Of a DNA stretch of 64,000 nucleotides, positions 1-37,896 are shown piece after piece (the stretch's first letter is position 1; each line of letters opens with the position of its first letter). Source of the DNA: an uncultured Syntrophobacterales bacterium. Its GTDB lineage: Bacteria; Desulfobacterota; Binatia; UBA9968; JAJDTQ01. A program made the translations under genes and the position numbers. The stretch spans positions 7,174 through 71,173 of the forward strand of contig CAZVUC010000092.1 in assembly GCA_964630405.1 (NCBI GenBank), given 5' to 3'. The notes under the pieces were generated by a model. The model saw nothing but the letters and a program-made list of their open reading frames with translations, was not told where the DNA came from and searched no databases.

Positions 1-108
1 CTGACAGGACGCGCAAGAAGGCCTCGCCGCCCGTGAGTCCATTGACTTCGATCATGTTCTTTCCTCCGTTAGAGAATAGATGAGCCTAGAATACGGCGCC
101 GGGGGCGG

Positions 109-1371: not shown

Positions 1372-1395
1372 ACCCGTGCGTTGACCGGGTTCATG

Positions 1396-2196: not shown

Positions 2197-2933
2197 CCGC
2201 GAGTCCGCCCCCAGCAGTCGTCCACCTCGGCCCAGTCCTCCTCGGGAATCGCGTAGGAGTGGGTCCCGGCGATCAGGCCCGCCCGATTCAGGTTGCTGGG
2301 GCATATCATGCGTTCGTCTATTTCCTTCTCCGCCAGCCTGGCGTCCATGAGGTCATGGCTCCGGTCCGAATGGCCCAACCCCATGGCGTGCCCGATCTCG
2401 TGGGCCGCCATGTTCTGGGCCTCCACGACGCCCACACCCCTGAGCCCGAGGTAGACGTACGCCTTGCGGATGCCTTCCCGCCCGTTGCGGCATTTCAACT
2501 TGGTGGCGCCCACGATCCCCGGCAACACGTCATCGAACAGCTCGATGGTGATATCGGCGTCATCGTCGCCGGTTTCGTGCATGGCAAAGAACGGCAGCAC
2601 GCGTTCCCACTGCGACACCCCCCGGCGCACCGCCAGCGCCGTCTCGAGATCCACGCCGGCCCAGTTGTTGATCTTGTAGGTCACCACCCCACGGTCCGGG
2701 GAGTTCCACCGGGCCACGGCGCCGTCTTCACACGTCATCCGCTGAATTTTCACCATGTCGACATGACCCGGGGCTTCGTGGTCCCGAAGGAATCGAGCGC
2801 CATTTTCCTCGCCGCAGGCGGCCCCGGTCTCCGCGCCTTCGGCGTTCGTGCACGCCTCGCCGTTGGAATGGCACAGGGTCAACGTGAATGCCAGGACGAG
2901 AAGGTGCAGGATTGATTGATTGGGCGTGAACAT
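2193..2933 (-). CDS. secreted zinc metalloprotease, matrixin (M10)-like
   Basis: HEIGHAMGLGHSD matches HExxHxxGxxH. The hydrophobic N-terminus 'MFTPNQSILHLLVLAFTLTLC' is signal-peptide-like. Start chosen at this Met, not the 688-aa raw ORF, which overlaps ybdK on the opposite strand. Confidence 0.55.
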   Translation of the reverse strand: MFTPNQSILHLLVLAFTLTLCHSNGEACTNAEGAETGAACGEENGARFLRDHEAPGHVDMVKIQRMTCEDGAVARWNSPDRGVVTYKINNWAGVDLETALAVRRGVSQWERVLPFFAMHETGDDDADITIELFDDVLPGIVGATKLKCRNGREGIRKAYVYLGLRGVGVVEAQNMAAHEIGHAMGLGHSDRSHDLMDARLAEKEIDERMICPSNLNRAGLIAGTHSYAIPEEDWAEVDDCWGRTRG

Positions 2934-3209
2934 GCTGACGTCGGCATTCTCGTCGTGTGGCGGAAGGCCTTGGGCGCAGTCACCGCAAACCGCGCCCTTA
3001 TACACCGTCCGGTGTCCGGTCTGCAACCCGCGGGGAATCTTGGCCGATCCCGTTGGGGACGCCGCCTCATGGTCTTGTCGACCTGGGCTCGCGTGACTCC
3101 GCCCTTGCCTCCCCGCGCCGCGCGTGCGATATCTCACCGCGTGTGAGTTCCCCGGTGGATGGTTCCAGTGATCCGGCCGTTGCAGGCCGCCAACACGAGC
3201 GAGGCGGAC

Positions 3210-4406
3210 ATGGCGTTCGAGCGACTGCGCAGACTCATGGGTGAAGGCGAGGACGAAGAGGCCGAGGCACAGAAGGACGTGGAGATCACCTTCGGCATCG
3301 AGGAGGAGCTTTGGCTGGTGGATCCGGACAGCCGCGACATCATCGCCGATCCGGACACGGGGATCTTCGACTGGTGCGAGCAGAACCGGGGACCTCACGG
3401 GTTCGTACACGAGCTGCTCCGTTCCCAGCTCGAGACCAACACCCGCGTGTGCGACTCGGTGGCCGACCTGCGCGGCGCGCTCGTGGAGACCCGCCGGATC
3501 GTGGCGGAGGCGGCCAGCCGGCACGGCGCCACGGTGATGGCCGCGTCCACCCATCCCTTCGCGGCCTGGGAATCGCAGATGAGGACGCCCAAGGAACGGT
3601 ACGAAAGGCTGGCAACCCGGTTGCAGGAGAGCGCGCGGCGGCTTCTCGTGAACGGCATGCACATCCACGCCGGTTTCGGGGACGCCGACTCGCGCATCCG
3701 CGTCATGACCGCGATCCGGCGCTACATGCCCCTGCTGCACGCCCTCTCCACGTCGTCGCCGTTCAACGCCGGCCGCGAGACTGGCTACAAGTCCTACCGG
3801 CTCACCATCATGGGCGCGTTGCCGCGCACCGGCCTCCCCGGCCCCATGTGGTCCCGGGCCGAGTTCGACCAACTGGTGGCGGACTACCAGCGGATGAATC
3901 TCATCGGCGACGGCACCGAGCTGTGGTGGGACATCCGGCCGTCCGTGCGCTTTCCCACCATCGAGCTGCGCATCTGCGACCTGTGCCCGCGCATCGACGA
4001 CGCCATGTGCATCGCCACCCTCTACGCCTGCCTTATCCGGCGGCTGTCGCGGCTCGACCGCGAAGGCGGGCTGCCGGCCGAGCCGCCCACCGAGATCATT
4101 GCCGAGAACCGCTGGCTGGCCCAGCGCTACGGCGTGCTCGGCTTCCATGGCGACACCCGGGAGGGCGGCCGCAAGGACGTCGAAGACTACGCCAAGGAAC
4201 TGGTGGAAGAACTGGCCGACGACGCCCGCGCCCTGGACTGCGAGAAGGAGTTGCAACACGCCCTCACCATCATCCGCGAGGGCACCGGCGCCGACCGCCA
4301 GATCGACCTCTTCCGCCTCCGCCGGGTGGAGGGCGACACCGACGATCAGGCGCTGCGCGCGGTGGTGGACCTGGTGATCGCGGAGACGCGGGAGGGGATC
4401 GACTGA
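3210..4406 (+). CDS. carboxylate-amine ligase, YbdK / GCS2 (glutamate-cysteine ligase family 2)
   Basis: 'FGIEEELWLVD' N-terminal motif, 'WWDIRP', 'IELRICD'. Length of about 400 aa is typical of the YbdK family. Confidence 0.7.
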   Translation: MAFERLRRLMGEGEDEEAEAQKDVEITFGIEEELWLVDPDSRDIIADPDTGIFDWCEQNRGPHGFVHELLRSQLETNTRVCDSVADLRGALVETRRIVAEAASRHGATVMAASTHPFAAWESQMRTPKERYERLATRLQESARRLLVNGMHIHAGFGDADSRIRVMTAIRRYMPLLHALSTSSPFNAGRETGYKSYRLTIMGALPRTGLPGPMWSRAEFDQLVADYQRMNLIGDGTELWWDIRPSVRFPTIELRICDLCPRIDDAMCIATLYACLIRRLSRLDREGGLPAEPPTEIIAENRWLAQRYGVLGFHGDTREGGRKDVEDYAKELVEELADDARALDCEKELQHALTIIREGTGADRQIDLFRLRRVEGDTDDQALRAVVDLVIAETREGID

Positions 4407-4546
4407 AACGTCGCGGAGGCGCTCGCGCCCCTTTGAACCGGATTCGTTCCGTCACCGCGCCCAGGACGACACGATGATCTCGCAAGCGGAACCCGCGGCG
4501 CGTCGCAGCTTCCGGTCAAGCGTCGCCAGCGGGCAGGCCAGGACGA

Positions 4547-4783
4547 TCACTTCCGGCCCGCGTCACGTGCGCGCAGAAGCCGAGAGGGTTCAACGCGCGA
4601 GCCCAGGGCTTCTTTACGCTCACGAACACCCTGGAGCCACGCGCCGAGATGGGGACGTGAGACGATGCGCTCCAACTCACGGCGGAGATACTCCTGCAGG
4701 GATTGTCGTTGCAATGCCGCCCGCGCCACGAGCTCATCGCGTACATGCTCCGGAACGTCTCGGATGATGATCTGTACCGACAT
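4547..4783 (-). CDS. ribbon-helix-helix antitoxin-like protein (FitA/VapB, Arc/MetJ type)
   Basis: 'MSVQIIIRDVPEHVRDELVARAA...QEYLRRELERIV' is a typical RHH antitoxin N-terminus. No adjacent PIN/toxin ORF found. Sits immediately downstream of the DUF499 gene. Confidence 0.5.
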   Translation of the reverse strand: MSVQIIIRDVPEHVRDELVARAALQRQSLQEYLRRELERIVSRPHLGAWLQGVRERKEALGSRVEPSRLLRARDAGRK

Positions 4784-4917
4784 GAAAGTAATTTGCCCTC
4801 GCTGACAACAGTCCGCAAGCACAGCTGCCCATTTTGAGGACGATACGAACAGGCCCGGTGCTGCGCAGCGGTGGACCTAGTCGTTAAGGAAACCGCGAGG
4901 GTGTTGGGTCGTAGAGG

Positions 4918-7695
4918 TCAGGAGCGCTCGATTTGTACGTGTTCGATCATACCGAGGTCGGTCAGGATCTGTCGGAGTTCCGTCTCGAAGTTGTTGGCCA
5001 GAGCCGCGTCGACCGTCACTGAACACTCAACTGTCACGTCGAGGTTTTCTCCGGACCTAAGTTTAGGCAAGAGTTTGGTCCCGAGCCGGTTCCAGAGTCC
5101 AGGAGGCACATTTCCAACCAGCCGAAGTAACGTTTCCTTTCCTGCCGACGCCGAACCTTCAGCGGAAGGCGTGCCCGGACTCGGTTCAAGCACGAAGCCT
5201 GACCCCGATTCTTGGCCTGACGTGGGCGCTGGTTGAGGCGGCGGCAAAGTTCCGGTTGCCCGGAGTTGCTCGGCCTTGGCTTTCGTCAGGAGAAAGACAT
5301 CGGCCTCGAACGCCACCTCCTCCGCGTACACCGGCTCTTTGTACCATACCCGCTCATATTGACCGCCGCCCTTGTCGCCGGAGGCGAGACCGAAGTCTCC
5401 GCGACCGACGAAATCCACAACGCGCCCGCGAAGAACCATGTCCGGATCCATCAGGCGTGTCAAAGCGCCGTTCAGAAAACTCTGCCGCAGACTCGTCAAC
5501 GGCCATGCCCCGATGTCCTTGAAAGCCGGCGGCCAATGACGGTCAATGTATCCTGCGCCGACGGTCTCATTCAGCAAGGCCCCTGACTTCAACGCTGCGA
5601 CGATGCGTCCGCACAATGTTTCACTGGCACTGGCGTGGCCCGCTCCGAGGTCAATGATCTTGAGGCCGTGCTTGGCCTGTGCATCCCCGAGCGCCACGAA
5701 GCGATAGCCGGCCCACACCTCGTCCTTGGCAGCTTCTTCTGCGTCCCGTACATGCGCCTGAATCTCGGAGCGGTCCGCCCGCTCGAATTCCGTGCCCAGG
5801 ACTCCTTCGGTCACTTCGCGCGCCACGCGTTTCCAGGCAAGCCAGATTTCGACCTTGTCGAGGAGCTCCCTACCCGGCTTTCTCGCACACCAGACGAGGG
5901 CGCCCGGGTACAGCCGTGGCGAATTGCCACGTTCCCTGGTCCAACGGCTAACACGTTCCACGGCTTGACCACCCTCACTCCACTCCTCCACCGGGTCCAG
6001 GACAACCAGGGTCAGGCGGGGTGAATCCTGCACCGCATCGCCGTTCTCCGGGAAGAAGCCGACTGGAATCGTTGCGCCGCGCGCGAATTCACTCTCTACA
6101 AGCCTCCGGACCGCAGGTCTGGTTTCTGTCTCCTCGTCTAGCGAAGCTCGCCGGTCGCTGACCACCTTTCGCAGAGTTGCCTGATGATGAATACGATAGC
6201 CGTCCGTGCCGATCTTACGGACAAAGAAACCCGACTTCTCCAGAGCCGAGGCCGCGTTGTCGACCGTGGTCGTCTCCACCTCGGGCTCGCCAAGAGCAAA
6301 CCGCAATTCCGGCAAGTGTGCGACCTTGTCCACTTGGCCCCCCGAGGACTCGAACAAGACGGCGGTACCCACGCGGCAGTGAATGTCGCGCAAGGCCCCT
6401 TTTGCATCCGTATCCAGAGCCTTGGCGTGAGCCATGGGACCCGCTACATCGGCGTCGATGGCCACATCGAGCCGCGACTCGCCGAGTTGGCCGAGCACCA
6501 CGGCACGGAACTCGGGAACCTGAAGGGGTGCGGACCCCAACGTGATCAGGGGCTCTGTCCGAGCCTTCTGGAACTGCTCGCGCGCCGCCCAGGAAATCCA
6601 TTGCGCCAGCATTGCAAGGGCACCCCGAGTTTGCTGAAACTGAGGGAGCGCGCGCCACTTACGCTGAAAGACGGACAATGTCGCCGGGTGAAAAGGATAG
6701 CAAGCCTCGAAACGACCCCTCAAAAACTCTCTTGCCTTTGTCTCGGTAGTAGCGGTGTCCACAGCCAGCCATTCCGAGGGAAGCCGCGCAGTCCGCTCGA
6801 AACACCAGTCCGCATAGGTTTTCGCCACCCTCTGACGCACCCGCAACTTGCCAAGGTCCTCAAACAGCCGTCGTCGCACGACCTCGCTGATCTCAGACTC
6901 GTCGTTGGCGATGAGATCGCGGGCGACACGGCGCACAACCTTGGTGATCCGTTCCTGCCACTCCTGGTCCCAATTGGTCATCTCAACCTGACTACGGGGA
7001 AGGCTGATGACTGCGGCCGTCTGCGCCACACCGGTAACCGCCACAGTCAAGTTCTGGAGGAACGCGTGAAAGGACTCCGCCATGTCGCGGTGACGGTTCA
7101 CGAAGTTCAACACTTCATCAAACAACAGAAGCACCGGGCCACCCGCAGCAGAAAATACCCTGACCAATGCATCGGTTCCCGGCGGTGTGGTCCGTGCGGC
7201 GTCACCCAACACCGCTACACCCTTGTCCCCGGCCAACTGACGAGCCAAATCGATCCAAGGCGTCTCCCGTCCCTCGGCGGGGTCCCAAGCGTTGCCAACG
7301 AACACCCCGACTTGGGCGGAGGGTGTCTCGCCTATGCTTGCCTCCTTCAGGAGGTCAGCGACACCGGCAAATTTGTTGGCACGTGCGCCGGCTTTAGCCA
7401 GGTGGTAGAGCGACGTCAGGGTGTGAGTCTTACCGCCACCGAACTGGGTGATGAGCGTCAAGACCGGTGAGGTGTTCTCCGTCTTGCCGGATAGGCGACG
7501 CAGCACCATGCCCGCATGCTCCCACAACGCGCGAGTGAAGTAGGTGCGCGCGAAGAACTGTACCGGATCGCTATAGTCCTCAGGGGCAGATCCTGCCACC
7601 ACCTGCTCCAGGGCGATGGCGAACTCGTCCGGACTGAACGAACGGCCTTCGCGTACCTCCTTGCGGAGCGTCACAACCTTGTACCACGGATCCAC
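4918..7695 (-). CDS. DUF499-family P-loop ATPase (BrxC-like) of the helicase/methylase/ATPase defence triad
   Basis: 925 aa. Walker-A-like 'ITQFGGGKTHTL' near the N-terminus, Walker-B-like 'LLLFDEV', long alpha-helical C-terminal region. Last gene of the operon, 6 bp after the toxin gene. Confidence 0.7.
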   Translation of the reverse strand: MDPWYKVVTLRKEVREGRSFSPDEFAIALEQVVAGSAPEDYSDPVQFFARTYFTRALWEHAGMVLRRLSGKTENTSPVLTLITQFGGGKTHTLTSLYHLAKAGARANKFAGVADLLKEASIGETPSAQVGVFVGNAWDPAEGRETPWIDLARQLAGDKGVAVLGDAARTTPPGTDALVRVFSAAGGPVLLLFDEVLNFVNRHRDMAESFHAFLQNLTVAVTGVAQTAAVISLPRSQVEMTNWDQEWQERITKVVRRVARDLIANDESEISEVVRRRLFEDLGKLRVRQRVAKTYADWCFERTARLPSEWLAVDTATTETKAREFLRGRFEACYPFHPATLSVFQRKWRALPQFQQTRGALAMLAQWISWAAREQFQKARTEPLITLGSAPLQVPEFRAVVLGQLGESRLDVAIDADVAGPMAHAKALDTDAKGALRDIHCRVGTAVLFESSGGQVDKVAHLPELRFALGEPEVETTTVDNAASALEKSGFFVRKIGTDGYRIHHQATLRKVVSDRRASLDEETETRPAVRRLVESEFARGATIPVGFFPENGDAVQDSPRLTLVVLDPVEEWSEGGQAVERVSRWTRERGNSPRLYPGALVWCARKPGRELLDKVEIWLAWKRVAREVTEGVLGTEFERADRSEIQAHVRDAEEAAKDEVWAGYRFVALGDAQAKHGLKIIDLGAGHASASETLCGRIVAALKSGALLNETVGAGYIDRHWPPAFKDIGAWPLTSLRQSFLNGALTRLMDPDMVLRGRVVDFVGRGDFGLASGDKGGGQYERVWYKEPVYAEEVAFEADVFLLTKAKAEQLRATGTLPPPQPAPTSGQESGSGFVLEPSPGTPSAEGSASAGKETLLRLVGNVPPGLWNRLGTKLLPKLRSGENLDVTVECSVTVDAALANNFETELRQILTDLGMIEHVQIERS

Positions 7696-7701
7696 TAGCC
7701 T

Positions 7702-8067
7702 TCACCTCGCTGGCCGCGTGTCGCAGAACGTATCCGAACGTGTGGGGGTCACCACAATCAAGGCGTCTTCCTCTATTGCATTTGCATGCCGACCGATAAG
7801 CTCATCCATGGCGACCACCTTCTCCGCCACTCGCATGTCGACGAAGCGAATGATGCATGGGTGTGGCATGCGACGCACGAAGACCAACTCACCGAAGTCC
7901 TTGTCCTCGGTTATGAGTACTCGTCCCTCTCGATTTGCCCGCGCGAGCAGCACTTCATCCGTGGCATAGGGGTCTACGTCCAACGCGGAGACGACATCGT
8001 GCCCCAAGTCCGCCAACATGCTGCACAAACTGCGGGATGCGGCACAGACATCGAGGAGAAATTTCAA
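7702..8067 (-). CDS. DUF5615-family PIN-like (Mut7-C-like) putative toxin
   Basis: 'MKFLLDVCAAS...VLITEDKDFGEL' resembles DUF5615. TTG start overlaps the DUF433 stop by 4 nt (TTGA). Confidence 0.6.
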   Translation of the reverse strand: MKFLLDVCAASRSLCSMLADLGHDVVSALDVDPYATDEVLLARANREGRVLITEDKDFGELVFVRRMPHPCIIRFVDMRVAEKVVAMDELIGRHANAIEEDALIVVTPTRSDTFCDTRPAR

Positions 8068-8318
8068 GGCGTTGTCCGGACAGGCATTCGCTCATGCACA
8101 TGCTCGCCTGCCATTGCGCGGTGGGCAAAAAGCAGACACGCCTGGATGTCTTCAGCCTCCAACACCGGGTATTCCTGGAGTATCCCCTCTGCCGTATCCC
8201 CTGCCGCAAGCATTCCCAGGATGTGCTCCACCGCGATGCGCATGTCGCGAATGATGGGTTTGCCGCCAAAAACGTCCGCGCGCACGGTAACGCGCTTGAG
8301 TAGCTCGGTTTCAGTCAT
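8064..8318 (-). CDS. DUF433-domain putative antitoxin
   Basis: 'VFGGKPIIRDMRIAVEHILGMLAAGDTAEGILQEYP' matches the DUF433 core. GGAGG Shine-Dalgarno 8 nt upstream. Translationally coupled to the DUF5615 gene. Confidence 0.6.
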   Translation of the reverse strand: MTETELLKRVTVRADVFGGKPIIRDMRIAVEHILGMLAAGDTAEGILQEYPVLEAEDIQACLLFAHRAMAGEHVHERMPVRTTP

Positions 8319-8385
8319 GATGGGTGCCTCCGCGGGCCATCGCTCTAGACTCTACACTACAAGTCGCGATGCAATCCTCGCATGC

Positions 8386-11300
8386 TTACCTCGGTACCGC
8401 CAGCAACATGGCATCCAACAGCCGTTTCTCGTCGCTGCCACGAGGATACAGGGCGGAAAGAGCGTTTGATAGACGCAGGAACTCCTGGCCCCGCTCCTGC
8501 TCGGCCTTCAACAAGGCGCGTAGCGCATTGCTACGACCACTGGCTTGGAGCAGCATGCCGGTGTGGACCCGGTCCAAGGTTGTGGCTCCAAGAGCCTTGG
8601 CGTCGTGCCTGTCGGATACGTCGCCATATTGTGCCGCCGGCTCGCTTACCACGAAACTCTTACCTTCCTGTTGGTCGGGGAAAAGCACTCCCTGAAACGA
8701 TTTCGCGGCAGTCGAACCCTCTTGTTCCAACCACCCGGCTACAACCTCTGCCCCCTGCTCTCCGAAAAGTTGCTTTGCCCGCTCAGTGACGGGCAGCAAC
8801 CGGACCACGCCCTTCTTGGTCTCAATGGTGCGTTTCTCCCACTTGGGCAGATCGATGCCAAGGGGCTGCGCAAAGCGGCGCACGACATCGAAAACCAAGG
8901 AGAAGCCTTTGGCCTTGCCGCTAGGTACTTCTTCGCCATCGGAATCATCGGCCGAAGCACCCTCACCGCTTCCGGTATCCTGCTCAGGCGTCTCCCCGCC
9001 CGTGGTTGCCTGGAGCGTCCACAGGAACAGCGCGGTTAGACGTGCGTCTTCTTCCAGTGCGCCGACCAAACCGTTGCGTGCTTGTGCTTCTGTGCTGCCG
9101 AGCACCTGCTCAAGAGCTGCGCGGCCAACAACCTCCCACACTTTCTCCAGGTACTCGGCAAGTTGAACTTCGTGCCCCTCCGCGGTCTCCACTGATCGAT
9201 AGCGGCTGAAAAGCTCTAGTGCTGGACCAACACAAGCAAACACCAAATCGGCGCCACGAATGCCCTCGTTCTGCAACCGCTCCATCCAATCGGCAACACG
9301 GCCGGGAAGTTCGTTCAAAACATCCCCCCAGTCGCCAACCGGCGCGTCATCCAAACGAGGGCGGCATATGAGATGTACGCTTGTCGCGAGGGCCGCGGAG
9401 TCTTGAGCACGCAGGCGAGCGCCCCTTTCCGTCGCAACCGGCCAAGAACCGGTAATTGTCCATCCGCCCCGGATTATGCCGGACAGAAGTGCCTCCCACC
9501 CTTCGGTAGTCTTGTGTGCAAATACGACGGATCCAATCCCATCCTCGTGCAGCACTCGTCGGCCCTCTGCGAAGGCCCTCGCCATGGTTTCCTCGAACCA
9601 CTGACGGTCCTTCGGCACACCGTCGGCCTGTTTGGATTCGTCCTGTACCGCTTCAGCACCCTTGGGTGAGAGTGAGTTCCGCGAATCGAACGGATCCCGC
9701 AACAACGAATGGTTCGGCAAAGCCCGCTTCAGCCACACGAGAAAGAAATCAGATAGGTCAGCATAGGGAACTGCGTCGTAGTAAGGTGGATCAGTAAACC
9801 AGATTGCAGCCGATTTGTGGGGTAGCGGATGGTCTGTGGCGTCGACTTGCTGTACTTGGGCAGTGGTTTGAGAGATATGGCTAATGGTCTCAACAGCGCT
9901 GTAGACGCTAGCGAAACCCGCACCGAATGCACCAGATGAATCCCCCAACGGAATCGGTTCCACGAAATCCCAGGTCATTGGGATGGCCTGACGACCGAAC
10001 GTGCACGTCGTCTTCTCGAAGGTCAAGTGCCACTTGGTTCCTGAACTGCCATAGTCCGCGCGTTTGCCGACCCCACAGGACAACGTGTCAACCAACTGTC
10101 CGTACAGTTCGTCCCCTGAGACCCGCATGGAGGCGATCGCACCAGTCAGTGCTATCAGCGCTAGTTTCTGTCGCGCCGTAAACAGGTCGCTCCACTCTCG
10201 CATACCGTATCGCTGAACGCGAAATCCCAGTGTGCCAATCGGTGGCAATGGTTCATCGGGCACGGGACAAAGGCCTTGTTGGCCGCTGCGTTCCCACGCT
10301 TGAAGCATCCCGGTCAGCACAGTCTGTGCGCGACGCACTGCTACGTAGTCCTTGGCCGTCGGTAAACGATAGTGGCGTCCCTTCTTGCCCGCCTTTACGA
10401 TGACGACCGCTAGTAATCTAGCCCCCGCGACACGTCGACCTTTCTCGTCAAATACTACATCTGCACCTCCTCGCTGCCCGGAAAGTTGAATCGGCACACG
10501 TGGATTATTCTTGGTCCCCGGCAGTACAGTTCCGCAGCATGGACAAATCACGTTGGCGTTGTTTCCCTTCGCCTTCGTCCCCGTGAGTTCAACAAACCCA
10601 GTCTTGCTATTCTCACTACCCTCGCCTCGCGCTATTCGAAAAGCAACCGGCCCACCCTTCGGCTTCTCACTGATCAACATTGCTCGGCAATTCCCGTGAG
10701 CCGTTTCCCTAAAAAACCGCGCTCTTGTCGCCCCCTTCTTGGATAGCCAAGGAGACCTGTAAATCGGAATCTCGGCGCCACAATTCGGAGCTTCGCACTG
10801 AACCGTACGCGCCCACAAATACGCGATCGGAACTCCCCCGTCGTCATCCTTGGGGTAGAGATCTACTAGTTCCCTCTCCGCCTGCCGAATAATCGCTCCG
10901 CCCGCGCTGCGCAGTTCCTCAATGTTCCTAGGTCCGTGGCGCGGTATGTCGTCCAGCATAACCTTGAGAATCAGGCACGCCACCGGGTTTAGATCACTGG
11001 CAAACGCCTCGCAGTCGAGGCGTAGCGCCTCCAAGGGAATCGAACCACCACCCGCAAACGGGTCCACCACAAGAGGGGGCTCATCACCATGCGCCGCCTT
11101 CACTAGGTTCCTCCCAACCCGCAGGTAAGTTGTATTGTCCGCCATATCCCAGTTGGCGAACGAACCGATGAACCAAAGCAATGCCTTGCGCAACTCCTCG
11201 TCGCCCATCGGCGGCTGCCGAACCTCACTGAGGATCTCCCGTGCCTGCTGCTTGAACGGTTCCGGACAGTGCTCGTCGCAAGGGTCCGGCAGTAACAACG

Positions 11301-11544
11301 CCAACAGCACGGCGCGGCTCGAAGCCAACGGCCTTCGCGCCCACCACAGATGCAGCGTCGACGGATGCCCGTGTCGAATCGATTTCTCACGCGCCGCATG
11401 CCGGGATACTTCGGCCACCGGGAAATCAACCTCTGCGAGCCGTTTACATTCCTTGGGGATCATTGAGTTACCATATAAGTTTCGTGCGTCGGTTTCGGCG
11501 CTGTCTATAGCACTACGCGTCAACCGAGTACGCACACTCTTCAT
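8386..11544 (-). CDS. DUF1156-family N6-adenine (or N4-cytosine) DNA methyltransferase of the defence triad
   Basis: N-terminal DUF1156 signature 'VDFPVAEVSRHAAREKSIRHGHPSTLHLWWARRPLASSRAV'. 'DPFAGGGS' SAM-binding motif I. Catalytic motif IV 'DPPYYD'. Cys cluster 'CEAPNCG...ICPCCG' suggests an inserted zinc ribbon. Confidence 0.75.
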   Translation of the reverse strand: MKSVRTRLTRSAIDSAETDARNLYGNSMIPKECKRLAEVDFPVAEVSRHAAREKSIRHGHPSTLHLWWARRPLASSRAVLLALLLPDPCDEHCPEPFKQQAREILSEVRQPPMGDEELRKALLWFIGSFANWDMADNTTYLRVGRNLVKAAHGDEPPLVVDPFAGGGSIPLEALRLDCEAFASDLNPVACLILKVMLDDIPRHGPRNIEELRSAGGAIIRQAERELVDLYPKDDDGGVPIAYLWARTVQCEAPNCGAEIPIYRSPWLSKKGATRARFFRETAHGNCRAMLISEKPKGGPVAFRIARGEGSENSKTGFVELTGTKAKGNNANVICPCCGTVLPGTKNNPRVPIQLSGQRGGADVVFDEKGRRVAGARLLAVVIVKAGKKGRHYRLPTAKDYVAVRRAQTVLTGMLQAWERSGQQGLCPVPDEPLPPIGTLGFRVQRYGMREWSDLFTARQKLALIALTGAIASMRVSGDELYGQLVDTLSCGVGKRADYGSSGTKWHLTFEKTTCTFGRQAIPMTWDFVEPIPLGDSSGAFGAGFASVYSAVETISHISQTTAQVQQVDATDHPLPHKSAAIWFTDPPYYDAVPYADLSDFFLVWLKRALPNHSLLRDPFDSRNSLSPKGAEAVQDESKQADGVPKDRQWFEETMARAFAEGRRVLHEDGIGSVVFAHKTTEGWEALLSGIIRGGWTITGSWPVATERGARLRAQDSAALATSVHLICRPRLDDAPVGDWGDVLNELPGRVADWMERLQNEGIRGADLVFACVGPALELFSRYRSVETAEGHEVQLAEYLEKVWEVVGRAALEQVLGSTEAQARNGLVGALEEDARLTALFLWTLQATTGGETPEQDTGSGEGASADDSDGEEVPSGKAKGFSLVFDVVRRFAQPLGIDLPKWEKRTIETKKGVVRLLPVTERAKQLFGEQGAEVVAGWLEQEGSTAAKSFQGVLFPDQQEGKSFVVSEPAAQYGDVSDRHDAKALGATTLDRVHTGMLLQASGRSNALRALLKAEQERGQEFLRLSNALSALYPRGSDEKRLLDAMLLAVPR

Positions 11545-11557
11545 TGCACTCCTTCAT

Positions 11558-13675
11558 TCACGCCGTCTTACCCCAGCGGTGCTGGACGTACTTGACGGTT
11601 TCGTCGACGGGAAGCGGCCTGGTCCCGTTGCCAGTCCGGAGGTAGAAGACCGCAGATTTCTTCTCATCCACGTAGATCGGATGGTCGCTTCGTTCGACGG
11701 TGATTTGGCAGACTTCGTGACCGTCGATTTCGTGAAAGGTGACAGTCAAGTATGGCGATGATCCCGCACCAAGATCTCGTGCCACGAGGTCTTGAAAGTG
11801 AAGTTCAAAACCATCACGATCTTTCTTGCGCAGTGTGGCATAGTCAGCCTCAATTCCTACCGCCGTTCCAGCATCGTCAACACCGAGAAGAAGAATGCCA
11901 CCGTCACCGTTCAGGAATCCAGCCAACGTCTTGATGACTACTTCTTCAAGTTCCTTGTTGACCCGTTTTTCGCGACGGTCCCAGCGTAAACTCGACTTGA
12001 ACTCCAACGTCTGGCTTTCGCCACCAGACATCAGACCACGGACAGTTTGTTCGTCCGTTCCGTCTGTCGTATCGTCCGGAAGCCAACCTGCTACGAATTC
12101 GTTCATCTCCTCCGCCAACAAACGCCTGCGGGCGCCCAAAAAATCGGTGTAGTTCTCGGGCCGCCAGAGTTCGCGGTCCATCGGCACCGCCTGAGTTCGC
12201 AGTGCGCCGGGCTGGTTCTTCTCAACCTCAGGCAGATATTCAGACGGCGCGGAACGCCGTTCTTTTTTATCCGCCCGTTGCGTGAGAAAGGCTCGGTTGG
12301 CCAATTCGTTGGTCAGCTTGGAATCAACGTCGCCTTGAAGTTCAGCCTTCTTCAGTACGGATGGCGGGAAGATATGATGATTTTCCTGCCCATTGCTCTT
12401 CCCGGTGACCTTGTCGTAGAGCCGGATACCCGTAAACCAATCGCGTGCATCATGGGCGCGAGCGACCACCTGTGCAAGACGCGCCACCGCGGAGGTTATC
12501 CCAGCCCTGGCCAAATCCGAGGCCTCCAAGACGACACGACCCCGTTCGCGAAGGATTGCGGTCTCCAGTTCGTGGGTTGGATCGAGATCCTGTCCGGCAA
12601 CAAGAGCCACGTCCTGCTGAAGCTTGGTCTCCGCCGCACCCGAATAGCGCTGCCAAAGGCCTGCCAGGTAGAGCCAACGGATGAACCGATTCTTGACTAC
12701 GTCGGTCGGGAACCGTCCGTCATGCCGGGCCAAAAATACGGTGGCCGGCACAAGCACGTTGTTGGTGGGTAGCTCCCTAACATTATCGATAAAGGCTTCG
12801 TGGCGCAGCACGTACACCAAGTACTCAAACGCGACTTGCATATCCGTCCATGCGGCCTGCAACGTCGCAGCGGGCGTCCTAAGGAAAGAACCCTCCAATA
12901 GAACCGAACCGGTCGCCACACCGGCCAAGCAACGAACCAAAAAATTGAAATCCATACCGAAGCCGTGGCCCTCCATCTTCGTCTGGAAGTTGCGCAGTTC
13001 CTCCCGGGCTTCGGGCCAGATACTGCAGACGTGTGCGAGGGCGAGATCCGCATTGGTGAGCGGGGTGCCGGCCCTGTTGACCCTGTTGAAGATCTCGACG
13101 ACCTCATCGACGCCGAATTCATCTCCCGACACTTGGTCAACTGTGTAGGTATATCGGCGGACCTGATCAAGGAGGCTCAGGCGCTTCAGATTGTCCTGTA
13201 TGACCCTGCGCCGATCGTCATCGAGTTGGTCCAAACCTTCCAGGAGCTTGTCGAGACCTGCACTCAGGAACTCGTGAAGGCCGATCCATGCGGGATTCTT
13301 CTCCATCAACGACTTCTGCCAAAACCGAAACTCCTCTGTTTGCATGTTGAAGTATAGATCAAAAAAAAGTGCTTCGCCCTCGTAGAACTGAGGTGCCTCT
13401 CCTTTGAACAACACGTAAAGCGTTGTCAAACGCTGTTGTCCGTCGAGCAAAAGCAGCGAGTGACCGTCTTCGGCCGCTGTTCCGCCGCGTACCAACGACG
13501 GCTTGTAGGTCCGCCATATCAGCAAATGGCCGGTAGGATGCCGGCGGTATAAGGACTGCATGAGGCCGCGTACCTGTTCCTTCGTCCACACGTAACCGCG
13601 CTGGAATTCGGGCAACATGATCTCACCACGCCGCACCTGTCTCAGGAGTTCCTCAATCGACCTCACGTCATGCAT
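11558..13675 (-). CDS. GmrSD-like type IV (modification-dependent) restriction nuclease: DUF262 + DUF1524, fused to a C-terminal AlbA_2/Schlafen-like domain
   Basis: DUF262/ParB-like 'LPEFQRGYVW' and 'DGQQRLTTL'. DUF1524 His-Me finger 'GQENHHIFP'. C-terminal 'GESQTLEFKSS...LAGFLNGDGGILLLGVDDAGTAVGIE' is typical of AlbA_2. GAGGTGG Shine-Dalgarno before the ATG. Confidence 0.65.
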   Translation of the reverse strand: MHDVRSIEELLRQVRRGEIMLPEFQRGYVWTKEQVRGLMQSLYRRHPTGHLLIWRTYKPSLVRGGTAAEDGHSLLLLDGQQRLTTLYVLFKGEAPQFYEGEALFFDLYFNMQTEEFRFWQKSLMEKNPAWIGLHEFLSAGLDKLLEGLDQLDDDRRRVIQDNLKRLSLLDQVRRYTYTVDQVSGDEFGVDEVVEIFNRVNRAGTPLTNADLALAHVCSIWPEAREELRNFQTKMEGHGFGMDFNFLVRCLAGVATGSVLLEGSFLRTPAATLQAAWTDMQVAFEYLVYVLRHEAFIDNVRELPTNNVLVPATVFLARHDGRFPTDVVKNRFIRWLYLAGLWQRYSGAAETKLQQDVALVAGQDLDPTHELETAILRERGRVVLEASDLARAGITSAVARLAQVVARAHDARDWFTGIRLYDKVTGKSNGQENHHIFPPSVLKKAELQGDVDSKLTNELANRAFLTQRADKKERRSAPSEYLPEVEKNQPGALRTQAVPMDRELWRPENYTDFLGARRRLLAEEMNEFVAGWLPDDTTDGTDEQTVRGLMSGGESQTLEFKSSLRWDRREKRVNKELEEVVIKTLAGFLNGDGGILLLGVDDAGTAVGIEADYATLRKKDRDGFELHFQDLVARDLGAGSSPYLTVTFHEIDGHEVCQITVERSDHPIYVDEKKSAVFYLRTGNGTRPLPVDETVKYVQHRWGKTA

Positions 13676-13701
13676 GGCGCCACCTCAAAGTGATACCCCT
13701 T

Positions 13702-16700
13702 TCATACGTCACTGTGTTCCTCCATAGCCTTGGTTATGGCGCCCACCTGCAGCCAATAGTGCTGCACCTTCGTAACCTCATGCCACGGGAACCGAGCCGG
13801 GTTCCCAATGGGTTCCTGCAGTTGCGGTTGGTCCGCGCAGTTGGTCACGACGTAGAGCCAATAGCAGTCGGAGCGATCCTCGGCAACGCGGCGTTCGTTT
13901 GGCGTAAGCAGGATGTTGCCGGTGTTACCGGCAAGACCCTTGACCTCGATCAGACGCAACTCGCTTGAGTGCAGATCATGGCTGGTGACATCGTAGCCAA
14001 GGTTCTTCTGGTGGACGTCGTAGACCTGCCGGCCCTGGGCCGTTTCGTACTCCATGACCACCCGCATAGCGGTCATTTCGGTTTCGGGGTTCGGGCGCAG
14101 GCGGCGGACAACTGGTGTTTCACGGTCCGGGTTGGGCAGGACGAGTGCGCTCGCCAACCGCTCGACTCCTTGCAGCGTTACCGCCCGTTGTCTCTCGATT
14201 TCCTCATTGCGGCGTTGGCGTCGGCCCAGCACTTCGGCGTGACGGATTTCGGCTTGTGCCAAACGGCCTTCGGCGCCAGTGACGTCGTTCGCCACCTCTT
14301 CGGCAGCGCGACCGATTTCGTCGTCGATTCGCTGTAGAACCTCGGTCAAAGAGAGCTCTACGTGTTGGGCAATCCGGTCAACCTCCGCGAGCCGCTCAGA
14401 GCGTACCTCGTCGATAAACGGCGTCAGCGCGTGCTCGTTCAGCCAAGCAGTTGCTTCCGGGAGCGAGGCCACGGGCGGCAGAACGCTCGGTACATCGGTG
14501 GGCATTAGATTGCCGAGGAGTTCCATCCCCTGGATTTGAGGTGGCTGTTCGTCTCTCAACTCCACGGCAAAGAGCCTTTCGTGAATCACATGGCCCAACC
14601 CATCGACCACCTTTGCCTTGTAGAAATCGAGACGCGCCGGTTTTTCGTGGTCCAGGGAATGAAAACAGGCGCCCCTGGTGAAGACTTCCGACCCGAGGTC
14701 CAAACTGTTGCGCCGGAGGGCTTCGAACAGGGGGTGCCCCGGGGTCACCCATTCCAGGTTGTTCTGCTCCGCGGTGACGCGGTCTGTTGACAGTCGTGGA
14801 TAGCGAATCGCCAGATCCGGGAGGTTCCAGGAGGACTCGCGCTCATACTTCTTCAACCGCGACGGAGTGCGTCCCGGTTCGAACGTGTGAGCGATGCCGC
14901 TAACCGGTTTCAAGTCCAGCGCCGCGTCCCGAGCAGACTCGTTGATGAACCGCGCTATTGTCTCGGGTACAACCCGCCGTTCCCGCGCCTTGGCTCGTCG
15001 CTCGGTCAACATGTCCAGATTGAGCTTCTTGGAGGCCAGGCCTTCCAACGCCGTTTGACAGATGGCCCGGAAGTGGCCTTCGTCCACGTTCTTCAGGAGC
15101 CGTTCCTCAAGGTCAGCCTCGCCGAGTTTCTCGGCGTAGAAATCCCGCAGCACGGACTCCACGTGGGCCGACGGAAGGATCTCTCCCACGACGTTGAAGA
15201 CGGCATCGTCATCTAGGGCGTCGCGAATCTCCTGGAGCTTGTCCAAGAGGCGTTGGAGTACCCGGCCCTCAATCGTGTTGGTGGCGACGAAGTTGAAGAT
15301 GAGGCAGTCGAAACGCTGGCCGTAGCGATGGATCCGGCCCATCCGCTGCTCGAGCCTGTTGGGGTTCCAGGGAATGTCGTAGTTGAACAGGATGTGACAG
15401 CACTGGAGGTTGATGCCCTCGCCGGCTGCCTCGGTAGCCACCAGGATTTGGATGTGCCCTTCGCGAAACTGCTGTTCGGTGAATAACCGCGTTCCCGGTT
15501 CGTCGCGCGAGCCGGGCTTCATGCCGCCGTGAATGCATCCGACCCGGAAGCCCCACGACTTCAATTGGTCCATCAGGTAGTCGAGAGTGTCCTTGAACTC
15601 TGTGAAGATAAGCAGGCGCTGATCGGGATGATCGAAAAATCCCTGTTCCCTCATGATTTCCCGCAGCCGGCGTAGCTTTGCTTCATTGCCCGCGCCTTGC
15701 ACGGACTTGACTCGTTCAGAGAGTTCTCGGAGCTCACTGATTTCTTGGCGAACCTCATCTGCGTTGCCCGCCAGCGTGAACGCTTCAAGGATCCGCTCCA
15801 GGCGCTCGCGCTCGGCGTCTTCGAGCTCCTCCAGATCCTCCCAGTCAATGTCCGGCGGGGCCGTCCGTATAAGGTGCTCCGCTTTCTTGAGGCCTTCGTC
15901 CAGCCGCCTTGCCCGGTTGTCGAGCGAGCGTCGCATGGCATAGGTGCTGGAGGCGAGGCGTCGCTGATACAGCGACATGAGAAAACCGACCGCACGAGCC
16001 CTGGGGTCATCGCCTTGTGCAGCGGCCCGGGAGCTCTGGCGTTTAACGAATCGTGTGACCTCCCGGTACAGCTCGAACTCGGCGCCATCGGTAGTGAAGT
16101 CCACCGTGCGCGGGATGCGCTTGGTGAAAACCGGCTTGGCATTCCACTTTCCGTCTGCCTCTCGCTCTGGAAAGTAGACCATCGCTTCCTTGGTGCGCCT
16201 CAGGTAGAAGGGCGCTCGCCTCCGCTCCATGGCTTCGCGGATCGATTTGACGTCAGCGTAAGCGTCCCTATCGAGAAGCTGAAGAAACAGCGTAAAGTTC
16301 TGTGCATCGCCCTTGTGGGGTGTAGCGGTCAGTAAGAGTATGTGATCGGCACCGTCACGGAGCAGTTCCCCAAGCCGGTAGCGCAGGCTCTTGTGAGTCT
16401 CGTCTCGGGCCGACATGCGATGCGCCTCGTCCACTATTACAAGGTCCCAGTGCACTTGGCGAAGGCCCGGGAGGATATCCTGGCGCTTGGCCAGGTCGAG
16501 GGAGGTGATAATATGTTTCTGCTCGATCCACTGGTTGACGCCGAACTGGTCGCGGATGTCGCTGCCCTTGAAGACCAGGAACTTCTCGTCGAACTTTTCT
16601 TTTAGCTCGCGCTGCCACTGGAACGTCAGATTTGCTGGACAGACGATGAGAACCCGTTCGATAAGGCCCCGCAGCTTGAGTTCGCGGACCAGCAGGCCCG

Positions 16701-17112
16701 CCATGATGGTCTTGCCGGCGCCGGCATCGTCCGCCAGGAGAAACCGCACGCTGGGGAGTTTAAGGAGGTGTTCGTAGACCGCTTCGAGCTGATGCGGCAA
16801 CGGGTCAACGCGCGAGATAGAGAGTCCGAAGTATGGGTCGAACTCATAGGCTATGCCGAGGGAATAAGCCTGGAGGCCCAGACGCAGAAGGCGGCCATCT
16901 CGGTCGTAGGAAAAGGTGGAATCGGCAATTGTCAGATTGGATATCTGGTCGGCCGTCAGGGTAACCCGTCGGAATTGCTCCGTTTGTTGACCTACGAGGC
17001 CTGCTGTCCAAACGCCGGACCCATTGGGGCGGATGGTTTCCACCCGCATCGGCTCGCCAAAGAGCGGACCTGTGAGGATCTGTCCCTCCTTGATGGGTGC
17101 TTCGTTTGTCAT
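13702..17112 (-). CDS. SNF2/SF2 helicase with C-terminal DUF3883 (restriction-endonuclease-like) domain; first gene of the defence operon
   Basis: Helicase motif I 'DDAGAGKT', motif II 'DEAHR', motif III 'LLTATP', motif VI 'QRMGRIHRYGQ'. C-terminal 'IEVKG...LTPNERRVAEDRSDCYWLYVVTNC' is DUF3883-like. ATG at 17112 has a GGTGGAG Shine-Dalgarno; the raw ORF starts at a GTG at 17118. Confidence 0.75.
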   Translation of the reverse strand: MTNEAPIKEGQILTGPLFGEPMRVETIRPNGSGVWTAGLVGQQTEQFRRVTLTADQISNLTIADSTFSYDRDGRLLRLGLQAYSLGIAYEFDPYFGLSISRVDPLPHQLEAVYEHLLKLPSVRFLLADDAGAGKTIMAGLLVRELKLRGLIERVLIVCPANLTFQWQRELKEKFDEKFLVFKGSDIRDQFGVNQWIEQKHIITSLDLAKRQDILPGLRQVHWDLVIVDEAHRMSARDETHKSLRYRLGELLRDGADHILLLTATPHKGDAQNFTLFLQLLDRDAYADVKSIREAMERRRAPFYLRRTKEAMVYFPEREADGKWNAKPVFTKRIPRTVDFTTDGAEFELYREVTRFVKRQSSRAAAQGDDPRARAVGFLMSLYQRRLASSTYAMRRSLDNRARRLDEGLKKAEHLIRTAPPDIDWEDLEELEDAERERLERILEAFTLAGNADEVRQEISELRELSERVKSVQGAGNEAKLRRLREIMREQGFFDHPDQRLLIFTEFKDTLDYLMDQLKSWGFRVGCIHGGMKPGSRDEPGTRLFTEQQFREGHIQILVATEAAGEGINLQCCHILFNYDIPWNPNRLEQRMGRIHRYGQRFDCLIFNFVATNTIEGRVLQRLLDKLQEIRDALDDDAVFNVVGEILPSAHVESVLRDFYAEKLGEADLEERLLKNVDEGHFRAICQTALEGLASKKLNLDMLTERRAKARERRVVPETIARFINESARDAALDLKPVSGIAHTFEPGRTPSRLKKYERESSWNLPDLAIRYPRLSTDRVTAEQNNLEWVTPGHPLFEALRRNSLDLGSEVFTRGACFHSLDHEKPARLDFYKAKVVDGLGHVIHERLFAVELRDEQPPQIQGMELLGNLMPTDVPSVLPPVASLPEATAWLNEHALTPFIDEVRSERLAEVDRIAQHVELSLTEVLQRIDDEIGRAAEEVANDVTGAEGRLAQAEIRHAEVLGRRQRRNEEIERQRAVTLQGVERLASALVLPNPDRETPVVRRLRPNPETEMTAMRVVMEYETAQGRQVYDVHQKNLGYDVTSHDLHSSELRLIEVKGLAGNTGNILLTPNERRVAEDRSDCYWLYVVTNCADQPQLQEPIGNPARFPWHEVTKVQHYWLQVGAITKAMEEHSDV

Positions 17113-17305
17113 CTCCACCTACTCACCTGATGTACGAAGGATTTTGTTAAGTTTCTGTGGTTCGCTGTCTATGACATTGCCAAGGAAACCGCAAACGTAC
17201 GGCGGCATTGCGGCAGGCAAAGACGGTTGGAATTTGCCGTCAAAGATTGTTAGGTTAGCTTGAAAATCAAGCTATTCCAGTCCCGCCAGCGCAGGAGGTT
17301 TTGCC

Positions 17306-18370
17306 ATGTCCGTGATCGATGCCGATACCCATGTCGACGAGTCCGAGTCCACCTGGGCCGCGTTGGAGGGGACTCCCTATGCGAAGTACATGCCGGTGAC
17401 GGTCCACATGTCCGACGACGAGGCGAACCGGGCCGGCTTCAACACCACCACCCGGCGCAGTTGGGTAGTGGAGGGCAGGCTCCAGAACCGCGCGGTGCGG
17501 GACGAGATCAACCATCCGCCGCGAGTGCGGCGGGAGCTGGACGACGTGGAGGGCCGCCTGGCCCAAATGGACGAGATGGGCGTGGACATCCAGGTGATCT
17601 TTCCGACCTTCTTCATCCGCCACAACACCCAGAACGCCGAGGCCGAGTGGGCGCTGACCACCACCTACAACCGCTGGCTGGCCGAGAAGTGCGAGCCCAC
17701 CAACGGGCGGCTGCAGTGGGCCGCGGTGCTGCCGTGGCTGGATCCCCAAATGGGCATCGAGGAGCTGCGCTGGGCCAAGGAGCACGGTGCCTGCGGCATC
17801 TTCAAGCGCGGCTTCGACATCGGCAGGAAGGTCACCGACCCGCATTTCTTTCCGGTGTACGAGGAGGCCAACCGCCTGGACATGCCGCTGTGCTTCCACA
17901 CGGGCCATCCGCTGCCGTCGCGGGAGTGGGACCGGGGCTTCCCCATCATGTACGCTTTCGCCGAACTGGTGACCTCCAAGGTTCCGGAGATGTTCCCCAA
18001 CCTGCGCTTCGGCTTCATCGAGTCCGGTGCGTCGTGGATTCCTTACGTGATGTCGCAACTGGGCGCGACCAAGCGTGCCGCGCTGCGCGGTACGGGAACC
18101 GCCCTGCCGCAACTGTGCGACCTGGACCCCGACATCTTCCGCAAGAACCGCACCTACATCACCATCGACCCCATCGACGACGTGGAGTCGCTGCTGAAGT
18201 TCCACACCGAGGACAACCTGATCATCGGCACCGACTACAGCCACACCGACATCTCCGCCAACCTGAGCGGCCTCAACGAGGTGCACAACTGGGTGGACGA
18301 GGGCCGCATCAACAACGACCAGGCCGAGAAGATCCTCAACACCAACTCGCGCGTGTTCTACGGACTGTAG
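17306..18370 (+). CDS. amidohydrolase-2 family metal-dependent hydrolase (ACMSD-like TIM barrel)
   Basis: 'IDADTHV' N-terminal metal-binding motif, 'HTGHP', 'TDYSHTD'. Divergently transcribed from the defence operon. Confidence 0.65.
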   Translation: MSVIDADTHVDESESTWAALEGTPYAKYMPVTVHMSDDEANRAGFNTTTRRSWVVEGRLQNRAVRDEINHPPRVRRELDDVEGRLAQMDEMGVDIQVIFPTFFIRHNTQNAEAEWALTTTYNRWLAEKCEPTNGRLQWAAVLPWLDPQMGIEELRWAKEHGACGIFKRGFDIGRKVTDPHFFPVYEEANRLDMPLCFHTGHPLPSREWDRGFPIMYAFAELVTSKVPEMFPNLRFGFIESGASWIPYVMSQLGATKRAALRGTGTALPQLCDLDPDIFRKNRTYITIDPIDDVESLLKFHTEDNLIIGTDYSHTDISANLSGLNEVHNWVDEGRINNDQAEKILNTNSRVFYGL

Positions 18371-29529: not shown

Positions 29530-29616
29530 GCAACTTCCCGTGGGTAAGGAAATCGGATTTGTTCATCACGACAGCGGTGGGCGCAGTGGGTATCTTGGGG
29601 GCGAAAGGAGGCTCCC

Positions 29617-37820: not shown

Positions 37821-37896
<76 letters not shown>

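Follow-up and report, generated by a model that had tools for sequence, protein, structure and literature searches.

Does a compact gene island that combines a helicase, a methyltransferase, an ATPase, a nuclease and a small putative toxin-antitoxin pair represent a new composite defence system, or a known system that carries passengers? The question is raised by a 64,000-nucleotide stretch of DNA from an uncultured Syntrophobacterales bacterium (contig CAZVUC010000092.1, positions 7,174 to 71,173; hereafter the window), in which six minus-strand genes are packed head-to-tail in a 12.2-kb operon (4918-17118 in the list of open reading frames). The analyses presented here make it highly probable that the island is a complete helicase-methylase-ATPase (Hma) system with two independent auxiliary modules in its slots, lying in a strain-variable hotspot of a bacterium of high guanine-plus-cytosine (GC) content.

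The three core proteins were compared with the PADLOC models. HmaA, HmaB and HmaC matched the Hma profiles with E-values of 1.4e-171, 1.9e-103 and 9.4e-93 respectively, which excludes chance, and the alignments cover the profile nearly in full for HmaA and for the most part for HmaB and HmaC. HmaA scored 570.9 bits against PDLC00659 (protein residues 53-1096 on profile positions 50-1135 of 1176), HmaB matched PDLC00661 at the E-value given above and PDLC00660 at 5e-102, and residues 1-787 of HmaC aligned with positions 3-792 of the 941 of PDLC00662. Hma was named by Payne 2021 and is present in 26 phyla (PMC8565338); its curated loci contain each hma gene once, on the same strand and with at most three embedded genes between neighbours (Payne 2024). 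The window locus holds a single hmaA, hmaB and hmaC, all on the minus strand, with one embedded gene in the hmaA-hmaB slot and two in the hmaB-hmaC slot. Core architectures, gene order, strand and the two cargo slots are identical to those of Hma. No defining feature differs, and what the window copy carries is one particular combination of cargo. The original prediction, made from the letters of the DNA, had suggested that a DUF499, DUF1156 and superfamily 2 helicase cassette might be catalogued as a helicase-methylase-ATPase system, and this is the case, since the triad is the Hma system of PADLOC. Its further remark that it knew of no mechanistic characterisation is outdated: in Halomonas, HmaA protects against T4, and the NOV_C domain of this protein acts as a nickase that depends on Mn2+ (PMC11232893). 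The locus is a complete and intact copy of Hma, a system that existing catalogues cover together with its embedded layout.

The same triad has also been described as the Type-1 DUF499-centred system related to bacteriophage exclusion (BREX) (Nucleic Acids Research 2026, PMC12839542). Its parts are a BrxC-like ORC/Cdc6 AAA+ ATPase, a DUF1156 N6-adenine methyltransferase with an insert of target-recognition-domain (TRD) type, and a Snf2 helicase with an active C-terminal PD-(D/E)xK domain (PMC12839542). We looked for these features in the window proteins. Pfam assignments were judged against the curated cut-offs, and all domains named below passed unless stated. HmaA contains the motifs GAGKT (at residue 133), DEAH (230), TATP (264) and QRMGRIHRYGQ (591), as well as a NOV_C match at 7.1e-22 (the family was formerly DUF3883). 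Within NOV_C, E1058-x-K1060 and E1075 are spaced as E1104, K1106 and E1121 of the Halomonas protein, and D1043 is a candidate for the counterpart of D1084, with a spacing that differs (15 residues before the glutamate here, 20 in Halomonas). Combined mutation of these four Halomonas residues abolished both defence and nicking (PMC11232893). Motif-level evidence thus points to the C-terminal PD-(D/E)xK nuclease of the Type-1 helicase in the window HmaA. HmaC is an ORC/Cdc6-like AAA+ ATPase (Pfam DUF499, 4.1e-13) with a GGGKT P-loop in its translation and LLLFDE at residue 189, and its homologues at 75% identity or more fill more than 120 clusters. An N-terminal HEPN domain on the DUF499 protein is optional in Type-1 systems (1,370 of 2,446 Type-1 taxa) and is absent from the window HmaC.

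HmaB follows the Type-1 pattern of an N-terminal DUF1156 domain and a TRD-type insert after the motif that binds S-adenosylmethionine. DUF1156 was matched at 3.6e-23 on residues 41-92, and the NCBIfam model DUF1156_antiphage also matched, but under its cut-off. About 420 residues separate motif I (FAGGG, at 163) from motif IV (DPPY, at 585). When sliding-window identity was calculated with seven homologues, the best-conserved blocks were residues 51-200 and about 650-850, while identity dropped to 18-42% over residues 251-350 and 451-550. HmaB is also the least conserved core protein in comparison with two relatives that carry the same six genes, L030 and L031 (compared loci are designated by L numbers): it shares 66-73% identity with its counterparts, the other proteins 83-92%. 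Nucleotide homology between the window and both of these loci breaks exactly at the variable region of hmaB. These data suggest that the central region may be swapped between cassettes as a target-recognition region. Such hypervariability between motif I and DPPY supports, without proving, a role like that in restriction-modification. Because the homologues align only from residue 20-28 on, the true start of hmaB may be Met28.

Two other systems share part of this inventory. BREX type 3 and defence island system associated with restriction-modification (DISARM) likewise contain a BrxC-like ATPase, a PglX-like methyltransferase and a BrxHII/DrmD-like Snf2 helicase, and the logic common to all is methylation-based discrimination between self and non-self. 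Membership in BREX was rejected, as no island protein matched PglZ, BrxA, BrxB or BrxL in Pfam or PADLOC. DISARM was rejected as well, with no DrmA, DrmB or DrmC and no DUF1998 or phospholipase D-type (PLD) gene. For DrmD, an optional component of DISARM, the hmaA product scored 348 against the NCBIfam model, whose cut-off is 610, and the likeness is confined to the Snf2 core.

The layout of the island is given in Table 1. In the order from hmaA to hmaC, the intergenic distances calculated from the coordinates are 26, 13, 67, -4 (an overlap) and 6 bp. The segment 4402-17279 (12.9 kb) has a GC content of 0.591, as compared with 0.676 in the left flank and 0.667 in the right flank. No integrase family was matched among the scanned proteins of the island and its flanks, the sole tRNA gene of the window (tRNA-Asn at 37821) lies far from the island, and Rfam and Tandem Repeats Finder returned nothing inside it. 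The original prediction is borne out on all these points. Its domain assignments (SNF2 with DUF3883, GmrSD with AlbA, DUF1156, DUF433, DUF5615 and DUF499) all stand above the Pfam cut-offs. The coordinates agree with its compact single-strand gene order, with gaps of 6-67 bp and a 4-nt overlap in the toxin-antitoxin pair, and both the metabolic flanks and the edges devoid of integrase or tRNA were recovered. A single minus-strand transcript that starts in the leader upstream of hmaA, where the hma promoter is presumed to lie, probably covers all six genes. This leader has no blastn homology to two related loci, L022 and L024. An 11-nt direct match, AAGGAAACCGC, occurs at 4886-4896 and 17182-17192, just inside the two borders of the inserted DNA. 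With a uniform base composition, chance alone would give about 0.03 matches of this kind, a figure that is higher in GC-rich DNA, and one inverted match, also of 11 nt, was found besides. The repeat was rejected as an att site, direct and inverted matches being near the chance level, and its presence at the island ends is probably due to chance.

Table 1. Coordinates of the island genes and of the adjoining features in the window.
Feature	Coordinates	Strand	Description
hmaA	13702-17118	-	1138 aa; SNF2-rel_dom + Helicase_C + NOV_C
GmrSD-Schlafen (embedded gene 1)	11558-13675	-	705 aa; GmrSD_N + SLFN_AlbA_2
hmaB	8386-11544	-	1052 aa; DUF1156
DUF433 putative antitoxin (embedded gene 2a)	8064-8318	-	84 aa; Pfam DUF433
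DUF5615 PIN-like putative toxin (embedded gene 2b)	7702-8067	-	121 aa; TTG start
hmaC	4918-7695	-	925 aa; DUF499
FitA/VapB-like ribbon-helix-helix (RHH) antitoxin gene, outside the Hma operon	4547-4822	-	91 aa
VapC/PIN remnant	4452-4550	-	32 codons; nucleotide match to PIN gene of relatives
GCS2/YbdK ligase, left flank	3159-4406	+	profile search
Amidohydro_2 gene, right flank	17306-18370	+	homologue annotation Amidohydro_2; exact-sequence cluster 'amidohydrolase family protein'
Leader, presumed hma promoter region	17119-17279	.	upstream of hmaA, before the amidohydrolase promoter region
Variable hotspot cargo	4402-17279	.	between GCS2 and Amidohydro_2

The junction between the GCS2 and Amidohydro_2 genes was compared in relatives whose amidohydrolase shares a 90%-identity cluster with the window gene. 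In blastn alignments, the conserved flanks stop at 4401 and resume at 17280-17291. The 5-Mb genome that contains L022 has the same flanks as the window (trehalose phosphatase, M10 peptidase and GCS2 on one side; Amidohydro_2, xanthine dehydrogenase and a protein of the metallo-beta-lactamase (MBL) fold on the other), and its junction (7683-9975) contains solely a pair of DUF4276 and AAA_15/21 genes. PIN/RHH pairs and a DprA-like protein with a DEAD helicase were found in L024 (886-9986) and in L025 (1-9986), the latter containing in addition an hmaA of 82% identity followed by HEPN and methyltransferase genes. In L031 (559-12786), the same six-gene cassette as in the window abuts GCS2, itself 87% identical at the nucleotide level. 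Together, these results show that the GCS2/Amidohydro_2 junction is a lineage-specific, strain-variable defence hotspot that has neither integrase nor tRNA, which is newly described here.

The left end of the inserted segment carries traces of another occupant of this hotspot. The RHH gene (Pfam FitA-like_RHH, 1.3e-06; NCBIfam VapB, 1.9e-06, below cut-off) shares 76% nucleotide identity with the RHH gene of an amidohydrolase-adjacent RHH-PIN pair in L024, L025 and L027. For positions 4471-4535, identity with the 3' portion of the 139-aa PIN gene is 83% in L024 and L027 (82% in L025), and the remainder of that gene is missing. Since both the RHH gene and the PIN 3' end match this pair, the window retains, as judged by nucleotide similarity, an orphan VapB gene and a 32-codon remnant of VapC. 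With reference to the layout of these three loci, the Hma cassette lies between the RHH/PIN pair and the amidohydrolase, and the RHH gene is a resident of the hotspot and no part of the Hma operon. Two relatives, L025 (5066-5744) and L031 (1-562), have an RHH-PIN pair that shares 4 nt with the 5' end of hmaA, so that in these loci the hma operon may be transcribed from a toxin-antitoxin promoter; no such pair lies upstream of hmaA in the window.

Two further patches of the window were noted. A second low-GC patch (26-32 kb, GC about 0.61-0.63) contains plus-strand genes for a tyrosine integrase (Arm-DNA-bind_3, Phage_int_M and Phage_integrase) and an AAA_25 protein at 27815-31052; this is probably an integrated element of small size that has nothing to do with the Hma island. 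In another lower-GC patch (46377-47122, minus strand), a canonical PIN gene (PF01850) is preceded by a 106-aa open reading frame that has no Pfam match, and the two probably form another VapBC-type pair.

Is the presence of foreign genes inside the triad exceptional? The original prediction had considered a nuclease and a toxin-antitoxin module inside the cassette to be an unusual and possibly new architecture. This part of it does not hold. Embedded genes were counted in 931 of 1,485 curated Hma systems (62.7%), 96.7% of the embedded genes being oriented as the host system, and GmrSD-like genes (HEC-05 and HEC-06) are frequent cargo (Payne 2024). Insertions were independently reported in about 66.5% of hma loci, a GmrSD-related gene being among them (Liu 2024). 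More generally, GmrSD, PIN, HEPN and Schlafen nucleases are listed as effectors with an auxiliary or back-up function inside BREX and BREX-related loci (2026 survey). The six-gene order itself recurs in two other contigs. In L031 the identities of the hmaA, GmrSD-Schlafen, hmaB, DUF433, DUF5615 and hmaC products with those of the window are 92, 86, 73, 88, 83 and 88%, and in L030 they are 91, 85, 66, 88, 83 and 91%.

The contents of the slots were then compared among relatives. Loci of HmaC homologues were sampled by three look-ups, which is a small sample. The hmaA-hmaB slot was found to contain NYN, AAA_21 with DUF4276, MNT with HEPN, or kinase genes, and the hmaB-hmaC slot MNT with HEPN, DUF2283, AAA_21 with DUF4276, or DUF433 with DUF5615; UvrD, a kinase/ORC-like protein and a second methyltransferase were further cargo of the same slots. 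Clearly, the embedded genes are modular cargo in two slots. For the GmrSD-Schlafen gene, neighbourhoods of homologues were surveyed in 16 loci, one genome per species, from lineages that include Vicinamibacterales, Spirochaetia, Bipolaricaulota, Coriobacteriia, Gemmatimonadota, Dehalococcoidia, Immundisolibacterales and Longimicrobiales. It adjoins Hma genes in 10 of the 16 genomes, from about eight phyla; in eight of these ten loci it lies between hmaA and hmaB, and the other two are truncated by contig ends. No Hma neighbour was detectable in the remaining six (L005, L008, L010, L011, L016 and L017), and PADLOC recognised no known system among the neighbours in L005, L008, L010 and L016, barring one PDC-S03 match. 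The GmrSD-HNH-Schlafen family is preferentially located in the hmaA-hmaB slot and is widespread across phyla. Decayed loci with Hma and GmrSD-Schlafen genes were also observed (L019-L021, 12147-13765; L013; L028). In L019-L021, an ISL3 transposase gene interrupts hmaB, other insertion sequence (IS) elements lie nearby and a tyrosine integrase gene adjoins hmaA.

The GmrSD-Schlafen protein of the first slot matches Pfam GmrSD_N (1.8e-30) and SLFN_AlbA_2 (PF04326, 3.3e-18), and also, as its best match in PADLOC, HEC-05 ('Hma-embedded candidate', BrxU-type; 3.1e-42), whose profile is matched to its end. Among the sequences of the PDB, BrxU (7P9K) was the sole match (phmmer E 1.7e-13). A DGQQR motif at residue 78 is invariant among homologues. 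In an HNH-like region, H433, N456 and N460 are invariant in 20 homologues, position 434 being H, Y or A. The C-terminal Schlafen/AlbA_2 domain (residues 541-705, about 165 aa) was modelled with a predicted local distance difference test (pLDDT) of 76-94. Its Foldseek matches comprise 3LMM, BrxU, SLFN13 (5YD0, 1.9e-4), SLFN5, SLFN14, SLFN11, the tRNase domain of SAMD9 and bacterial AlbA_2 proteins. The triad E553-x4-E558-x-K560 is kept in 146-148 of the 149 representative clusters that have this domain, and Ex4(E/D)xK is the catalytic motif of prokaryotic Schlafen tRNases, for which tRNA cleavage has been demonstrated (bioRxiv 10.1101/2025.07.24.666596). As a C-terminal module, the Schlafen-type domain was found in 6,650 clusters, joined to a wide variety of N-terminal partners (representative search). 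One such partner was seen directly upstream of the Hma locus of L004, where a type I restriction R subunit (78-3269; HSDR_N, ResIII and T1R_D3-like) ends in SLFN_AlbA_2.

Fusion of GmrSD to a C-terminal AlbA_2 domain has been on record since 2017 (PMC5714182). Among catalogued prokaryotic Schlafens, 1.8% are DUF262-Slfn fusions, and the one of E. coli UC4224 protects against T3 and T7 (bioRxiv 10.1101/2025.07.24.666596). This pSlfn7 protein and that of the window have in common the order GmrSD_N then SLFN_AlbA_2, the Ex4(E/D)xK motif and a location in a defence hotspot. In contrast, the E. coli protein has 589 aa, lacks a recognisable HNH stretch and is encoded in a P2-like prophage, whereas that of the window lies inside Hma. 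By these sequence features, the two belong to one architecture class and to separate families. The E. coli gene (L034, 9001-10770; NZ_CP104472.1) is located in the variable region of the prophage, flanked by a portal gene and a DinI-like gene. With BrxU and HEC-05, the GmrSD-Schlafen protein shares a DGQQR-containing DUF262 domain, a long helical linker, an HNH-like region and embedding in a methylation-based system (BREX, Hma or type I restriction-modification), but similarity is low and the C-terminal Schlafen/AlbA_2 domain is absent from BrxU. The best 120 clusters of homologues are all about 700 aa long, contain both domains and are 66-85% identical; no characterised member of this family was found in the searchable literature.

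The second slot contains the DUF433/DUF5615 pair. DUF433 was matched at 2.1e-21, and the stop of its gene overlaps the start of the DUF5615 gene by 4 nt. From its TTG start, the DUF5615 protein is matched over the full length of the family (9e-18; residues 1-108 on profile positions 1-109 of 110), with weaker matches to PIN_10 and Mut7-C. The pair corresponds to the PIN-COG2442 type of the VapBC toxin-antitoxin family (PMC2701414, PMC3834315), toxicity and neutralisation being predicted. As in Synechocystis vapBC10, a small DUF433 gene is followed by an overlapping PIN-like gene; the window toxin differs in being a DUF5615 PIN-like protein and not a canonical PF01850 one, and the pair is embedded between hmaB and hmaC. 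A literature search found no paper that names DUF433 together with DUF5615. The same pair occupies the hmaB-hmaC slot in L030, L031 and L004, and in L014 it stands after hmaB, hmaC being outside the fetched locus. DUF433, with or without DUF5615, follows hmaB in L003, L004, L014 and L015. Solo DUF433 genes were observed in the same four loci (L003, 13125-13403 and 17939-18187; L004, 17191-17445; L014, 9682-9921; L015, 9683-9922 and 16406-16654), directly upstream of hmaC, GmrSD-Schlafen or AAA_15/21 ATPase genes. This could be an indication that DUF433 proteins may regulate or neutralise more than PIN toxins.

The role of this pair is the point on which another explanation survives best. It could serve only its own maintenance as a selfish addiction module, or control transcription of the locus, having no direct part in defence as an antiphage effector, and we regard this as a genuine possibility, although not as the probable one. 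PIN-COG2442 pairs are classical VapBC-type modules, neither protein of the pair matches a PADLOC model, and the hotspot is rich in RHH/PIN pairs, one of which has decayed; moreover, the overlap of RHH-PIN pairs with the 5' end of hmaA in L025 and L031 fits autoregulated promoters or stabilisation of the island. PIN endoribonucleases nevertheless appear in a published list of back-up effectors for BREX and BREX-related systems, which speaks for an effector role.

At the other extreme, the six genes could constitute one integrated system in which GmrSD-Schlafen and DUF433/DUF5615 are obligate, co-evolved components of Hma, acting as sensors, regulators or triggered effectors. The six-gene order and orientation, which the window, L030 and L031 share as separate contigs, is what such a system would display, as is the location of GmrSD-Schlafen among or next to hma genes in 10 of the 16 genomes. 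The tight coupling of the genes (the 4-nt overlap within the pair, and 6 bp between DUF5615 and hmaC in the window, 0 bp in L031) and the solo DUF433 genes directly upstream of hmaC, GmrSD-Schlafen or ATPase genes point in the same direction. However, the slots are filled with unrelated cargo in L032 and L033, whose HmaC is 77-82% identical, and in L006, L007 and L009; L025, with its 82%-identical HmaA, has HEPN in place of GmrSD-Schlafen; six of the surveyed GmrSD-Schlafen genes lie without Hma neighbours; and BrxU, HEC-05 and HEC-06 give defence on their own (Payne 2024). We consider an obligate association unlikely in view of these data. Finally, that the cluster is an inactive relic, or serves DNA repair, chromatin remodelling or epigenetic regulation, is very improbable: degraded copies do exist elsewhere (the IS-disrupted hmaB of L019-L021, the fragments in L013 and L028), and housekeeping functions are possible for Snf2 helicases and for orphan methyltransferases, but here none of the six open reading frames is truncated and their motifs are intact, accessory DNA acquired horizontally is indicated by the low GC and by the location in a strain-variable hotspot, a homologous HmaA defends experimentally, and the neighbours in relatives are of defence type.

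If the island is a complete Hma system with two independent auxiliary modules, its layers might operate as follows. HmaB, with its DPPY motif, would methylate adenines in a host-specific motif, read probably by the hypervariable central region. HmaC, by analogy with what is published for BrxC, would assemble or license a scanning complex on DNA. HmaA would translocate on unmethylated invading DNA and nick or cleave it through the C-terminal PD-(D/E)xK domain, nickase activity and defence against T4 being known for the Halomonas homologue only. The GmrSD-Schlafen protein would target phages that evade methylation-based discrimination through hypermodified DNA, by a BrxU-like HNH cleavage regulated by nucleoside triphosphates, and its Ex4ExK domain could add cleavage of tRNA or other RNA as an abortive back-up. 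The VapBC-type pair may stabilise the island, serve as a last-resort RNase, or both.

Several observations weigh against this reading or parts of it. In Halomonas, HmaA was protective by itself and overexpression of HmaB left T4 sensitivity unchanged (Liu 2024); since HmaA alone is protective there, a division of labour like that of restriction-modification is unproven for any Hma. In the embedded nuclease, Pfam DUF1524 (PF07510) was not significant, while it is recorded on a 69%-identical homologue (P0050). The second residue of its 'HH' motif varies among homologues, and the AlphaFold2 (AF2) model of the full-length protein has a mean pLDDT of 56 and is confident in the Schlafen domain only. 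We rate HNH competence of this protein as likely and, for these three reasons, its activity as uncertain. The defending E. coli UC4224 protein aligns with it at 27% identity over no more than 63 aa (BLASTP E 0.002). Lastly, a consensus scan detected no sigma-70-like promoter in the leader, and the counts returned by promoter and terminator scans were not above those in shuffled sequence, without any excess of terminators.

What does the locus add to our view of Hma? It is a further case of the embedding already published for this system, with little conceptual novelty. Within a compact operon it stacks a presumably methylation-based system, a Schlafen-bearing nuclease that is predicted to target modified DNA, and a putative toxin-antitoxin pair. 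New here are the hotspot junction with its differing cargo, the hypervariable centre of HmaB and the retained DGQQR, HNH-like and Ex4ExK motifs of the nuclease. It is doubtful that the recurrent order of hmaA, GmrSD-HNH-Schlafen, hmaB, DUF433, DUF5615 and hmaC reflects a co-adapted unit and not a chance stack. If it did, the locus would represent a defined multi-layer subtype of Hma with communicating layers, in which the three-enzyme GmrSD-Schlafen protein would couple sensing of modified DNA to cleavage of DNA and tRNA, and DUF433 proteins would regulate the locus or, as antitoxins, neutralise more than a single effector. Natural variants that bear on independence or co-operation of the layers are at hand in L030 and L031, which have a different methylase variable region, and in L025, L032 and L033, which combine the same core with other cargo.

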